From NCBI RefSeq assembly GCF_024298765.1, contig NZ_CP101221.1: a stretch of DNA of 1,551 nt; one strand, written 5' to 3'. Shown here one piece after another: positions 1 to 1,353 of the stretch. Below the pieces are notes generated by a model. That model was not told the origin of the DNA. It made no database searches and saw only the letters and a program-made list of their open reading frames with translations. The first letter of the stretch is position 1. The number at the start of each line of letters is the position of its first letter. The stretch is from Escherichia coli. GTDB taxonomy: Bacteria; Pseudomonadota; Gammaproteobacteria; Enterobacterales; Enterobacteriaceae. A program made the translations under genes and the position numbers.

Positions 1-477
1 ATGTTTATTGATTCAGAAAAACGACTGAAACAACTTTCAGATGAGGCAAAGAAAAACACCGAGGATCTCGAAGAAGCAAAGAAGAATTCAAGGTTTACAC
101 AGGTATCCCCAAAAGGTTGGGAACGCGTTCGAGAGCTGCTGAAGGATAGTCAAGGCATATCAGCACTGAAGCTGTACTCATTTTTAGCGGAGCATATCGA
201 TCCTACGTGTGGCGCTGTCGTTGCGGATCAGCAATTCCTAGCTGAAAAACTTGGAGTTAGCAGAAGCACAATTATTCGGTGGCTCAATTACTTAGAATCA
301 AAAAATGCATTAGTTAGAATCCCCGTTGCTGGTAAGGTTTGTGCGTATGCCCTCGATCCACATGAAGTCTGGAAGGGATACAACACTACGAAAAACCATG
401 CAGCGTTTGTCACTAAAACACTGGTCAACAAAGACGGTGATATTCAGCGCCGAATCATGGCCATGTTTTCAAATTGA
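1..477 (+). CDS. repA: Plasmid replication initiator protein, small winged-helix Rep (pKL1 RepA-like / RepL-like), 158 aa
   Basis: Uninterrupted ORF ATG(1-3) to TGA(475-477), the only long ORF with protein-like composition. It has a charged, Lys/Glu-rich N-terminus and a clear helix-turn-helix segment (DQQFLAEKLGVSRSTIIRWLNYLESKNALVR). Size (~18 kDa) and organisation match single-gene small enterobacterial plasmids. No HUH or catalytic-Tyr motifs typical of rolling-circle Reps are evident. If the molecule is circular, an in-frame stop lies at 1510-1512 and a GAGGG Shine-Dalgarno at 1539-1543, about 8 nt before the ATG. Family assignment is from memory, not from a search. Confidence 0.85.
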   Translation: MFIDSEKRLKQLSDEAKKNTEDLEEAKKNSRFTQVSPKGWERVRELLKDSQGISALKLYSFLAEHIDPTCGAVVADQQFLAEKLGVSRSTIIRWLNYLESKNALVRIPVAGKVCAYALDPHEVWKGYNTTKNHAAFVTKTLVNKDGDIQRRIMAMFSN

Positions 478-510
478 GCCAGCGGCAGGCGGACAATCAG
501 GGGCTACGTG

Positions 511-539
511 TTAACGTTTTGACCATGATTGTCTATCCT
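511..539 (+). promoter_or_regulatory. Candidate promoter TTAACG-17 bp-TATCCT directed into the GC-rich block (alternative -35 TTGACC at 519-524)
   Basis: Sigma70-like hexamers about 35 bp downstream of the repA stop. Orientation matches what a ColE1-like primer or other plus-strand ncRNA running toward the pas-like site would need. Both hexamers are imperfect and no transcript is demonstrated. Confidence 0.2.
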
Positions 540-647
540 GCATTGCTCTTTTGCCGCCTCAAAATCCCTTGCTTGTTTTTGCTCCCCGATCCCCAGAACG
601 ACCGCGCCGCCACGGTTCCGGCAGCGCCTTGAGCGCAACCGGAAACC

Positions 648-667
648 GTCTGGGGAGAACCCCAGAC
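648..667. other. GC-rich hairpin GTCTGGGG-agaa-CCCCAGAC (8-bp stem, 4-nt loop) within the GC-rich noncoding block
   Basis: Perfect complementarity of 648-655 with 660-667, directly seen. Further hairpin-forming segments nearby: ACGGTTCCGG (611-620) with CCGGAAACCGT (639-649), and ATGCCC-tgac-GGGCAT (845-860). Confidence 0.7.
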
Positions 668-971
668 CCCCATCGCTGTAACACCGACGGTCTACGACCA
701 CCAACCAGCCGAATAGCTGCCTGTGCCGTGCAAATAGGCTTTGCAGGGGGCTGACGCGGTTCCTAGCGACCTGAAAGCCCCTGGTTAGGGGTATCGGCGC
801 GCCTGACCTCCTGAGAGCCTCTGTAAGCGTTTTTCGCGCCTTCCATGCCCTGACGGGCATTTAAAACCCGTTTCGTGTGTCTGAGAGCTTCTGAGCGCGT
901 TTGAGGGGCTATCTGGCGACTCATCCCCGAAAGAACAACAACGGAATCACCGACAACATGCGAGAGGTGAC

Positions 972-1032
972 ACCGCTCGCCGCAGCCCCAGCGACCGAAC
1001 GTAGTGAGCGAGTGGGCGAGGAAGCGGAAGAG
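972..1032 (-). other. ColE1-type primosome assembly / single-strand initiation (n' site)-like segment
   Basis: The minus strand reads CTCTTCCGCTTCCTCGC...TCGGTCG...GCTGCGGCGAGCGGT. This matches the pBR322/pUC segment CTCTTCCGCTTCCTCGCTCACTGACTCGCTGCGCTCGGTCGTTCGGCTGCGGCGAGCGGT in blocks of 17/17 and 15/15, in the same orientation and order relative to the bom homolog as in pBR322. It contains the AAGCGG hexamer associated with factor Y (PriA) sites. Function here is inferred from homology. Confidence 0.45.
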
Positions 1033-1068
1033 AACCGGAAACCACATTGAGCACGTACGCACTGATGC

Positions 1069-1093
1069 GGGGTGTCGGGGCGAAGCCCTGACC
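1069..1093. repeat. Left copy of perfect 25-bp inverted repeat (GGGGTGTCGGGGCGAAGCCCTGACC)
   Basis: Exact reverse complement of 1298-1322. The two copies are separated by 204 bp (1094-1297), which includes the oriT nic-like segment. Confidence 0.95.
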
Positions 1094-1260
1094 AGACGGC
1101 AAACGGAATATCGTCGCGGGTGACGGTATTACATTTGCACATCCTGTCCCGATTTCTGAGGCGTTTTAGCGGTGAACGGACGGCAAAACCATGATGGAGC
1201 TGTTGAGCGTTGAGAGCGTGAAATCTGGCAAAAATCACGGCTGGCGAGGCTTGTAGCGGA

Positions 1261-1297
1261 ATAAGCCAGTATACACTCCGCTATCGCTACGTGACTG
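1261..1297 (-). other. ColE1/pMB1-type oriT (bom) nic region, orphan (no relaxase in window)
   Basis: The minus strand reads CAGTCACGTAGCGATAGCGGAGTGTATACTGGCTTA, which as I recall it is identical over about 36 nt to the pBR322 bom/nic region. The adjacent repeat copy 1298-1322 matches the pBR322 sequence just upstream (GGGTGTCGGGGCGCAGCCATGACC) with 2 mismatches. The ColE1 MbeA nick is reported within CTGG|CTTA, i.e. between plus-strand 1265 and 1266 here. Sequence and nick position are from memory. Confidence 0.6.
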
Positions 1298-1322
1298 GGT
1301 CAGGGCTTCGCCCCGACACCCC
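1298..1322. repeat. Right copy of perfect 25-bp inverted repeat (GGTCAGGGCTTCGCCCCGACACCCC)
   Basis: Exact reverse complement of 1069-1093, 25/25. Identity stops at both ends (1297 and 1323 do not pair with 1094 and 1068). Confidence 0.95.
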
Positions 1323-1324
1323 AA

Positions 1325-1353
1325 AAGGGCGTTGCGTTGCGCGCAACACCCTT
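1325..1353. repeat. GC-rich palindromic hairpin (core GTTGCGCGCAAC 1336-1347, outer arms AAGGG/CCCTT)
   Basis: Perfect 12-bp palindrome with flanking complementary pentamers, directly seen. It sits between the oriT-like segment and the AT-rich tract. The GTTGC/GCAAC motif recurs at 1331-1335, 1469-1473 and 1479-1483. Confidence 0.8.

Follow-up and report, generated by a model that had tools for sequence, protein, structure and literature searches.

A relaxase-less 1,551-bp pKL1-family plasmid of Escherichia coli with orphan oriT-like blocks of the IncI-complex, ColE1 and IncX types, probably mobilised in trans

The window (the whole stretch of DNA that was analysed, 1,551 nucleotides) was found to be a complete 1,551-bp plasmid, and 100% identical 1551-bp plasmids were found. 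By plasmid typing it was assigned to the Col(MG828) replicon, a type enriched in ST131, and to the class 'mobilizable'. Its sole conserved ORF, repA (1-477, plus strand, 158 aa), encodes the initiator of the pKL1/Col(MG828) replicon; the protein is identical to that of pKL1 (NC_002145.1) under the common accession WP_000469298.1, and the two plasmids share 94.3% DNA identity over their full length. The Pfam scan of RepA gave HTH_36 at 1.5e-8 together with a weak RepL match, no specific family was obtained from NCBIfam, and one source labels the protein 'RepA plasmid replication protein'. RNAI was absent from the window even at E <= 1 with the same model that detects RNAI in ColE1, and the window, being without RNAI/RNAII, is therefore not a ColE1 replicon. 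The preliminary description of a protein-dependent Rep replicon with ColE1-like cis-acting blocks was thus borne out.

Upstream of repA lies the rep/ori module (1326-1551), which contains a palindrome (1325-1353) holding CAACACCC (1344-1351), i.e. GGGTGTTG, an A+T-rich tract (~1385-1415) and, by repeat search, RepA-operator-like inverted repeats (1419-1466). The oriV of pKL1 is also located upstream of rep and comprises an IHF box, Rep sites and a 16-bp inverted repeat (PMC3832669). With a pKL1-type RepA and inverted repeats upstream of repA, the window is a pKL1-family plasmid composed of repA, the upstream origin and a non-coding array of ~850 bp (~476-1325). The promoter scan of the window yielded no promoter-like site, the terminator scan yielded terminator-like sites inside repA only and at chance level, and the Rfam scan yielded one sub-threshold miRNA match, which is meaningless.

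The non-coding array was present in 438 of 5,426 complete E. coli genomes (~8%) and is linked to at least three different rep genes across the family. In the members with other rep genes the homology stops at ~1325, and the module 1326-1551 is not common to them; such joining of one array to different rep genes clearly supports the modular exchange that had been proposed. The array includes a conserved GC-rich non-coding block (609-971); in other plasmids, homologs of its sub-segments 671-860 and 813-971 lie a few hundred bp away from rep genes. Within 960-1350, it contains a primosome assembly site-like element (pas), an I-type oriT and a ColE1-type oriT facing the I-type one.

The core of the n'-pas/ssiA-like site (CCGCTCGCC...GAGGAAGCGGAA) was located at 972-1032 by homology to ColE1 and occurs in a single copy; a second pas was searched for on the minus strand of the window and was not found. 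The block is 83.6% identical to ColE1 1308-1367 (E 1e-12), and the pas region is 81% identical to a pMB1-like plasmid over 85 nt. In ColE1, RNAI lies at 645-749 (minus strand); ori is accordingly upstream of the pas block, which falls just downstream of ori on the displaced plus strand. The lagging-strand primosome of ColE1/pMB1 assembles at ssiA (PMC3167613). The window's site has the same orientation as ColE1 ssiA relative to the ColE1 oriT block, and it lies ~400-1000 bp from a Rep-dependent origin whereas ssiA lies ~100 nt downstream of the RNAII origin. The core (~57 nt, with sharp edges) was found in at least six backbones and flanks the rep genes of IncX4-type and several other Rep-dependent plasmids, so that its pairing with a Rep protein is not the oddity for which it had been taken. 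Nor is the site specifically ColE1-derived, as the preliminary description had supposed, since a 218-nt homology to an IncX4 plasmid (813-1029) overlaps the ColE1 homology (972-1321) there. The closing stem and a GAAGCGG motif are conserved, and the interior of the window allele differs from that of the pKL1 allele. In a structure derived from the same alignment, 98% of cells are paired with three compensatory pairs, and the covariation score was reached by 0 of 500 shuffles, the structure again being drawn from that alignment; the single-sequence fold (z = -1.4) is not exceptional alone. It is plausible that pas serves as an ssi for this replicon, with the plus strand as the putative active strand.

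The ColE1-family oriT (bom) occupies 1262-1322 on the minus strand. Positions 1262-1321 are identical to ColE1 1462-1521 at 59 of 60 nucleotides (98.3%, pairwise E 5e-25) and to a pMB1-like plasmid at 96.7%. It contains the nick motif CTGG|CTTA (CTGGCTTA) at 1269->1262, the proximal hairpin CCAGTCAC...GTG(TAT)ACTGG and the distal 8-bp repeat block GTCGGGGC/GCCCTGAC (1298-1322). The nick is predicted between 1266 and 1265 on the minus strand, following the position reportedly given by Varsaki et al. 2003. Exact runs of 46, 14, 14, 13 and 11 nt are shared with ColE1 and of 41, 17, 16 and 13 nt with the pMB1-like plasmid, collinear and in a single orientation in both cases, so that the preserved order and orientation of the pas-like and nic-like blocks can be upheld. 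Among the 72,556 plasmids searched, the ColE1-homologous blocks matched thousands of ColE1-type plasmids at E ~1e-19 to 1e-23, and the similarity is therefore not due to chance. The ColE1/pMB1 homology reported earlier is real (84% in the pas region), and the shared blocks, given as 36, 17 and 15 nt, were correctly judged as non-chance and were slight undercounts, with a ColE1 run of up to 46 nt.

Neither mbeA-D nor mobA-D was found on the plasmid, repA being the only conserved ORF; bom is therefore an orphan oriT, not a complete MOB module. It resembles in this respect the bom of pBR322, likewise a site without mob genes for which Mob proteins are needed in trans, and it may be mobilisable in trans by ColE1-type Mob proteins. 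The bom of ColE1/pMB1 differs in its setting, since that of the window sits on a Rep-protein replicon without RNAI/RNAII or rop. The identity to ColE1 ends 4 nt past the nick motif, beyond which lie a family-specific spacer (1156-1261) and the facing I-type oriT. Collinearity with ColE1 is broken over 1069-1261 (193 nt), and the left edge of the interruption is an 11-nt run, CGCACTGATGC (1058-1068, plus strand), collinear with ColE1 1443-1453.

The IncI-complex (R64-family) oriT was located at 1068-1155 on the plus strand by homology to nikA-adjoining oriTs, by its repeats and by its nick region. It is 96.6% identical over 88 nt to the oriT of the IncI-gamma/K1 plasmid L002, located 14 nt from nikA, and 90.9% identical to the oriT of R64. 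The I-complex oriT lies directly upstream of nikA and has 8-bp and 17-bp inverted repeats and a conserved nick region (PMC3817090). In the window, the 8-bp inverted-repeat block (1069-1093, GTCGGGGC/GCCCTGAC) is paired at 7 of 8 positions and the 17-bp repeat (1101-1117/1120-1136) is complementary at 13 of 17, the latter being identical in the native IncI-gamma/K1 helper. The nick region GCACATCCTG|TCCCG spans 1137-1151 on the plus strand; GCACATCCTGTCCCG is the same as that of R64, and so is the distance of 10 nt separating the repeat arm and the G of ATCCTG. On the plus strand, cleavage is predicted at 1146/1147, following the position reportedly given by Furuya & Komano 1991. The site of the window is without the adjoining nikA/nikB of R64 (IncI1) and is an orphan site, and the helper homology breaks off ~9-14 nt after the nick motif.

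The family contains three alleles of the NikA-site region which are only 55-59% alike, each of them matching one helper lineage at 90-100%. The allele of the window fits IncI-gamma/K1 and R64 and that of pKL1 fits an IncK2/Z plasmid; these two alleles share 57% identity. Of the I-type alleles, that of pKL1 alone is listed as validated: 'oriT_pKL1' is one of 91 oriTs catalogued with experimental validation, where it is assigned to the R64 family, and in this region it differs by ~43% from the window allele. Divergent alleles that each match one helper are the pattern expected from selection for recognition by helper proteins.

The two oriTs together form a perfect 25-nt inverted repeat (1069-1322), whose arms (1069-1093 and 1298-1322) are 204 nt apart. 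Its existence had been reported correctly, and the 193-nt gap in the ColE1 homology fits the earlier '167 bp plus the repeat'. Each arm matches both the ColE1 and the R64 oriTs, and the arms, placed head to head, are the distal block of the I-type oriT and its homolog in the ColE1-type oriT; the inverted repeat is thus a block native to both oriT families and not the by-product of an insertion. A recent duplication or gene conversion was considered for the perfect repeat and was rejected, since pKL1 and the sister plasmids L013, L016 and L018 have a single change in the left arm (24/25), which follows the IncK-type sequence; the arms are thus independent homologs.

These findings bear on the reading in which a Rep plasmid captured a single ColE1/pMB1 cassette (pas, nic and GGGTGTTG) that was later interrupted by 167 bp of anonymous inserted DNA, giving rise to the 25-nt inverted duplication. 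The collinear ColE1 blocks in one orientation speak for it, and the 11-nt ColE1 run abutting the interruption makes an ancestral ColE1-type pas-bom segment plausible. However, the 'insertion' is not anonymous DNA, being 91-97% identical to I-complex oriTs, both arms are native to the R64 and ColE1 oriTs and differ by 1 nt in the sisters, and pas is common to IncX4 over 218 nt. The inclusion of GGGTGTTG in the cassette could not be sustained either: neither ColE1 nor a natural pMB1-like plasmid has it in the matching flank, it is located past the end of the shared array, where homology stops at ~1325, and it belongs to the local palindrome of the rep/ori module. The probability of one 8-mer being shared by such flanks by chance was ~0.009 (with a pBR322 flank), which is not negligible given the many comparisons open to free reading. 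The single disrupted cassette is already contradicted as a complete account, and we regard it as unlikely.

A further block (491-551, plus strand) is similar to the oriT of IncX4-type (R6K-family-like) plasmids. It consists of an inverted repeat (492-502/523-533) paired at 10 of 11 positions, with one mismatch in the left arm, followed by TATCCTG|CATTG (TATCCTGCATTG) with an ATCCTG nick-type motif at 535-540. It is 85-87% identical over 55-61 nt to two copies in the IncX4 plasmid L011, one at 15219-15273, 50 nt upstream of ddp1(taxA)-taxC, and the other, inverted, at 23114-23174. The block is carried by 97 conjugative plasmids, mostly as two copies per record, and oriTs of the R6K type are typically duplicated. 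Because of the identity of only 85-87% to IncX4 and the left-arm mismatch, function as an oriT with TaxA/TaxC is the least certain among the oriT-like blocks, and it may be considered a candidate on sequence grounds. One sister plasmid has an extra IncX3-type block, which in its helper lies 34 nt from ddp1. The earlier reading had covered one of the three oriT-like blocks.

At each oriT the helper homology continues for 4-14 nt after the nick motif and then stops, so that only the part 5' of the nick has been retained. Within the family, bom is the least variable block (pi 2.0%, against 11.9% in the adjoining spacer 1156-1261), and the spacers (pi 11.9-20%) are far more variable than the oriT cores (2.0% and 4.6%). 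The spacer 1156-1261, located between the two facing nick sites, matches pKL1-family small plasmids only.

This pattern stands against the blocks being decaying, functionless relics of recombination with ColE1-, IncI- and IncX-type plasmids, which would not account for conserved cores next to variable spacers, for the retention of only the functional side of each oriT, or for NikA-site alleles that track helper lineages at 90-100%. Nor would it account for an oriT of pKL1 catalogued as experimentally validated or for the persistence of the array across different rep genes in 8% of complete E. coli genomes. Losses of parts do occur, the X-type arm being replaced in the sister plasmid L017 and 615-773 being deleted in the 1393-bp sister plasmid L015, and some members of the family are classed as non-mobilizable by MOB-suite. 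Decay of this kind is, in our judgement, improbable as the explanation, slightly more so than the single disrupted cassette.

Two other readings have very little probability. The 25-nt repeats as the termini of a MITE-like element inserted in bom would fit the perfect arms 204 nt apart, but the outer flanks show no direct duplication (...GATGCG|GGGG versus CCCC|AAAAGG), the two arms belong to, and run on into, different oriT homologies, the DNA between them matches an oriT and not a transposon end, and the array shared between replicons also ends at the right arm. A small protein encoded at 921-1142 on the minus strand, annotated by RefSeq as hypothetical in a region where ORFs of 51-105 aa occur, is opposed by a reading frame that shifts in sister plasmids, with an internal stop in L016 and an annotated ORF of 41 aa in L012, and by the non-coding homologies that account for this DNA; its coding potential was dropped on account of the frame changes and the stop in L016.

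The reading that we prefer, and consider probable, is that of a relaxase-less plasmid with borrowed cis-acting sites (pas and oriTs of the I, ColE1 and X types) which is mobilised in trans. The plasmid of the window encodes no relaxase, accessory protein, coupling protein or pilus, and with no relaxosome or transfer genes of its own its oriTs would be cut in trans by a co-resident relaxosome. In the route proposed here, in which the nicking positions, the function of each site and the role of pas are those that we infer, the I-type oriT would be cut by NikA/NikB of a co-resident IncI/K/B/O/Z plasmid, the X-type block by TaxA/TaxC of an IncX plasmid, and the ColE1-type oriT by MbeA-C/MobA-type proteins of a ColE1-like plasmid, in the last case with a conjugative helper in addition. 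The nicked strand would then be exported via the type IV secretion system of the helper, the spacer 1156-1261 leaving first whichever of the two facing nicks, I-type or ColE1-type, had been made. The plus strand would be that exported from the I-type and X-type nicks, and on the single-stranded plus strand pas may load the PriA primosome, priming either the lagging strand in vegetative replication or the complementary strand in the recipient.

A bolder form of this reading is offered tentatively, as possible though not the likelier outcome: a multi-helper hitchhiker with three orphan oriTs (IncI, IncX and ColE1) in ~850 bp, in which the NikA cassette has been swapped and pas primes the recipient strand. 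If it were true, the number of orphan oriTs in the sister plasmid with the extra IncX3-type block would be four, and the NikA-specificity cassette would have been swapped repeatedly by recombination at conserved flanks, tracking the circulating IncI-complex lineage. The general pattern described for relaxase-less oriT plasmids is an origin of the conjugative type or of the mobilisable type, 'one or the other, but not both', and origins of the conjugative type (IncI, IncX) together with one of the mobilisable type (ColE1) would run against it. The layout itself is that of pKL1 (1549 bp; Burian et al. 1997), with the same oriV, X-type block, pas, I-type and ColE1-type oriTs, the two plasmids differing in their alleles of the NikA-site region and of the pas interior.

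Mobilisation in trans of a relaxase-less plasmid is an already known strategy, so that no new kind of system is described here; pOriT plasmids are other relaxase-less oriT plasmids moved in this way. The pBuzz-type precedent is likewise very small and relaxase-less, and it exploits I-complex helpers through oriTs in inverse orientation; it has a rolling-circle Rep, whereas the window has a pKL1-type RepA, facing oriTs of different families (R64 and ColE1), an IncX-type block and pas. Small non-conjugative Staphylococcus aureus plasmids with oriT mimics (pWBG749 family) reportedly carry oriT subtypes, each of which copies the specificity of a helper lineage; the bacteria, oriT families and relaxases are other than those considered here. 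To our knowledge, the combined multi-helper picture has not been laid out before for the pKL1 family.

The pKL1-type plasmids of 1.5 kb are among the commonest replicons of E. coli, yet annotation usually lists them as 'cryptic' and gives them spurious ORFs. Non-coding DNA made up of orphan transfer origins and of a site for priming would explain how a one-gene plasmid spreads between strains and genera, and such a plasmid may be regarded as a compact natural reporter of the helper plasmids that co-circulate with it. The NikA-site cassettes on one backbone would represent a natural example of oriT specificity switching, and the pattern of their alleles could guide the prediction of which plasmids mobilise which.

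The window is a complete circular plasmid, 100% identical to many 1,551-bp records of E. coli, Shigella and Klebsiella; at least 80% of it is covered in 330 PLSDB records, and MOB-suite assigns one of the identical records, p4-H9, to replicon Col(MG828) and calls it 'mobilizable'. The sole conserved ORF (1-477) encodes a 158-aa protein with an HTH_36 helix-turn-helix domain and a weak RepL match. Its accession (WP_000469298.1) is the same as that annotated on the prototype pKL1 (NC_002145.1), to which the window is 94.3% identical over its full length. No RNAI/RNAII was detected in the window by an Rfam scan, and the same model detected RNAI in ColE1. Because of this accession and this absence, the premise of the preliminary description, a plasmid with a Rep protein rather than a ColE1 replicon, holds. 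The pKL1 oriV lies upstream of rep and comprises an IHF box, Rep-binding sites and a 16-bp inverted repeat (PMC3832669), a layout with which the window repeats at 1419-1466 are consistent.

Pairwise BLAST was performed between the window and ColE1 (NC_001371) or the natural pMB1-like plasmid pSBardo-Kan, and the ColE1/pMB1 homology proposed for 960-1350 was confirmed. Positions 1262-1321 corresponded to ColE1 1462-1521 (59/60 identical, E 5e-25) and 972-1032 to ColE1 1308-1367 (83.6%, E 1e-12); the identities of the same two blocks to pSBardo-Kan were 96.7% and 81%, respectively. Exact runs in common were 46, 14, 14, 13 and 11 nt with ColE1 and 41, 17, 16 and 13 nt with pSBardo-Kan, collinear and in a single orientation. 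The ColE1-type oriT (1262-1322, minus strand) carries the CTGG/CTTA nick motif. A third element had been included, GGGTGTTG (CAACACCC, 1344-1351), but is not supported: it is absent from the equivalent flanks of ColE1 and pSBardo-Kan and lies within a local palindrome, beyond about 1325, where homology to members with other rep genes ends. The palindrome AAGGGCGTTGCGTTGCGCGCAACACCCTT (1325-1353) stands exactly at the border of the shared oriT array and the rep/ori module, and is conserved only in members with pKL1-type RepA. As for the supposed insertion of 167 bp plus a repeat, ColE1 collinearity is indeed broken from 1068 to 1262, but the segment reads as an R64-family oriT and the repeat is no insertion duplicate. 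The original observation was real and its description incomplete.

When 960-1350 was searched at high sensitivity against 72,556 plasmids, the hits comprised, beside ColE1-type plasmids, many conjugative plasmids of 80-120 kb matching 1068-1155 only. The match to an IncI-gamma/K1 plasmid (96.6% over 88 nt) stops 14 nt short of the start codon of nikA, and that to R64 (90.9%) has the same position relative to nikA. The IncI1 oriT occupies the same nikA-proximal place and is defined by an 8-bp inverted repeat, conserved throughout the complex, and a 17-bp one, varying with the cognate NikA (PMC3817090). In the window the 8-bp repeat is GTCGGGGC/GCCCTGAC (7/8) and the 17-bp repeat is AAACGGAATATCGTCGC/GTGACGGTATTACATTT (13/17, with identical letters in the native helper), followed by GCACATCCTGTCCCG at a 10-nt spacing, as in R64. 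On the basis of the nikA-proximal homology, both repeats and GCACATCCTGTCCCG at the R64 spacing, 1068-1155 was assigned as a putative R64-family (I-type) oriT, which has a plus-strand nick motif and faces the minus-strand ColE1-type oriT. The segment between the facing nick motifs (1156-1261) was found only in the pKL1-type family. pSBardo-Kan, a true ColE1-type replicon, carries an I-type oriT-like block (1501-1584; 79.5% to that of the window) upstream of rop and its own bom downstream (1889-1948), and therefore the pairing of the two families is not unique to pKL1-type plasmids. The RefSeq hypothetical protein on the minus strand at 921-1142, spanning pas and the I-type oriT, is probably a spurious annotation, the frame being shifted in sister plasmids and interrupted by an internal stop in one of them (L016).

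The two oriTs share a perfect 25-nt inverted repeat, with the left arm (1069-1093) in the I-type and the right arm (1298-1322) in the ColE1-type oriT. The 25-nt block, GGGGTGTCGGGGCGAAGCCCTGACC, holds the 8-bp repeat and is native to R64 and ColE1 oriTs alike. The left arm of pKL1 and three further relatives has a 1-base difference, in agreement with the IncK-type sequence. The repeat thus consists of two homologous blocks in head-to-head arrangement. A duplication made by insertion is ruled out by the native place of the block in both oriT families and the divergence of the left arm, and a transposon end by the lack of a target duplication and the continuation of each arm into different oriT homology. 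Both arms hold GGGTG-TCGGGG, one base short of the CloDF13 nick sequence, reported as GGGTG/GTCGGG (PMC5935869), and might be candidates for recognition by MOBC-type relaxases. On the E. coli VL40 chromosome (L025, 701-733), the spacer nearest the leader of a type I-E CRISPR array matches the minus strand of 1056-1088 at 100% over 33 nt, counting the last G of the repeat. Since the match straddles the family-specific junction of ColE1-like flank and I-type repeat block, the spacer was acquired from a pKL1-family plasmid; the target flank is CAG, versus the canonical AAG PAM.

A third, IncX4-type oriT-like block was located at 491-551, where TATCCTGCATTG comes after an inverted repeat (10/11). 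An IncX4 plasmid holds two inverted copies with 85-87% identity to it, of which one lies 50 nt upstream of ddp1(taxA)-taxC; blocks of this type were found in 97 conjugative plasmids, mostly as two copies each, and R6K-type oriTs are duplicated in their own plasmids. The sister plasmid L013 (NZ_CP069700.1) has at about 539-590 a 51-nt insert matching IncX3 plasmids, 34 nt from ddp1, giving four oriT-like blocks within 1,506 bp, despite which it is labelled 'non-mobilizable' by MOB-suite. A conserved GC-rich non-coding segment (609-971) contains a 22-nt direct repeat (811-832/881-902) and hairpins such as TCTGGGGAGAACCCCAGA (648-665). Plasmids of the IncX4 and IncF types and two others carry homologs of 671-860 and 813-971 at a distance of a few hundred bp from rep genes, and a 1393-bp sister plasmid lacks 615-773 through a deletion.

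The Rfam model places the RNAI of ColE1 at 645-749 on the minus strand, and RNAII and leading-strand synthesis therefore run rightward; the pas homolog (ColE1 1308-1367) sits shortly after the origin, on the plus strand, which is the displaced one. Its position and strand match those of ssiA, a PriA-dependent primosome assembly site for lagging-strand synthesis (PMC3167613). The window block is oriented as in ColE1, with GAAGCGG on the plus strand, so the plus strand would be the active one. The consensus stem-loop has 98% of cells paired and compensatory changes at three pairs, a covariation reached by 0/500 shuffles and by no slid register; its support is modest, because the alignment scored is the one from which the structure was derived, and folding of the single sequence gave nothing unusual (z = -1.4). 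The pas element is not ColE1-specific: 813-1029 is 83% identical over 218 nt to non-coding sequence upstream of the replication initiator gene of an IncX4 plasmid, and the core of about 57 nt (CCGCTCGCC...GAGGAAGCGGAA) recurs with sharp edges in at least six backbones, in two of which core pairs flank a rep gene. Given this homology and recurrence, pas beside a Rep-dependent origin is commonplace. In the window, an IncX4-like and a ColE1-like stretch overlap at the pas, suggesting that such mosaics recombine at the homology provided by conserved cis elements.

The array (476-1325) was found in 438 of 5,426 complete E. coli genomes and is common to plasmids with at least three different rep genes. 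It is joined to a rep for a 146-aa protein in L013 and the sister plasmid L017, and to a diverged rep gene in an E. albertii plasmid. A 4.2-kb RepL-type plasmid (NZ_LR890339.1, 4237 bp) carries window-like 509-1060, X-type block through pas, and a second X-type copy; its genes include one for an EexN-family lipoprotein and a solitary one for a type IV secretion protein. In a 131-kb IncR plasmid (NZ_CP038858.1, 2164-3919), scrambled array pieces adjoin IS26 (pas 97%, I-type block 83%, 609-712 at 94%), suggesting capture of a small plasmid into a large one.

Mean pairwise diversity, calculated by block from an eight-plasmid alignment, varied strongly: 2.0% in the ColE1-type oriT, 4.6% in the I-type nick region, 3-5% in the two 8-bp-repeat blocks, 11.9% in the spacer between the nicks, 20.4% in the spacer after the X-type block and 20.2% in the I-type 17-bp-repeat region. 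The last has three alleles (window, pKL1 and L016) of 55-59% mutual identity. The window allele is 98% identical to IncI-gamma/K1 and 83% to R64, the pKL1 allele 90% to one IncK2/Z plasmid and the L016 allele 100% to another, the matching sequence adjoining the helper's nikA-like gene for all three. Because each allele matches one helper lineage, this region is not drifting. Donor-family homology of each oriT stops 4-14 nt beyond the nick motif; therefore, only the relaxosome-recognised side was retained.

The plasmid family, its Rep protein and the R64-family oriT are already in the literature and oriT databases, 'oriT_pKL1' being among 91 experimentally validated oriTs in a published collection (R64 family). 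Orphan oriTs, inversely oriented pairs among them, are well established for tiny plasmids, and the overall finding is a rediscovery. At the population level, relaxase-less oriT plasmids have been stated to exploit either conjugative- or mobilisable-type oriTs, 'but not both'. The two types side by side, and a NikA-site cassette swapped within one backbone, seem less explicitly documented and are not claimed as new.

Genes for a relaxase, accessory protein, coupling protein or pilus are absent from the plasmid, and mobilisation with a relaxase in trans is the best-supported model. Beside the observed homology, anatomy, conservation, allele-helper matching and distribution, we infer the activity of each site, the pas role and the exact nick positions, which we take to follow Furuya & Komano 1991 (I-type) and Varsaki et al. 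2003 (ColE1-type). The I-type site (1068-1155) would be served by NikA/NikB of an I-complex plasmid, the X-type block (491-551) by TaxA/TaxC of an IncX plasmid, and the ColE1-type site (1262-1322) by the Mob proteins of a co-resident ColE1-like plasmid, the channel being supplied by a conjugative plasmid; IncF and IncI1 plasmids mobilise ColE1-type plasmids efficiently. The same in-trans logic applies to the pBR322 bom site, to pBuzz and to relaxase-less oriT plasmids generally. A vegetative lagging-strand role of pas, whose placement depends on the replication direction, is equally possible. Under mobilisation in trans, nicking at the I- or X-type site would export the plus strand with pas in the active orientation, and pas could for that reason prime complementary-strand synthesis in the recipient.
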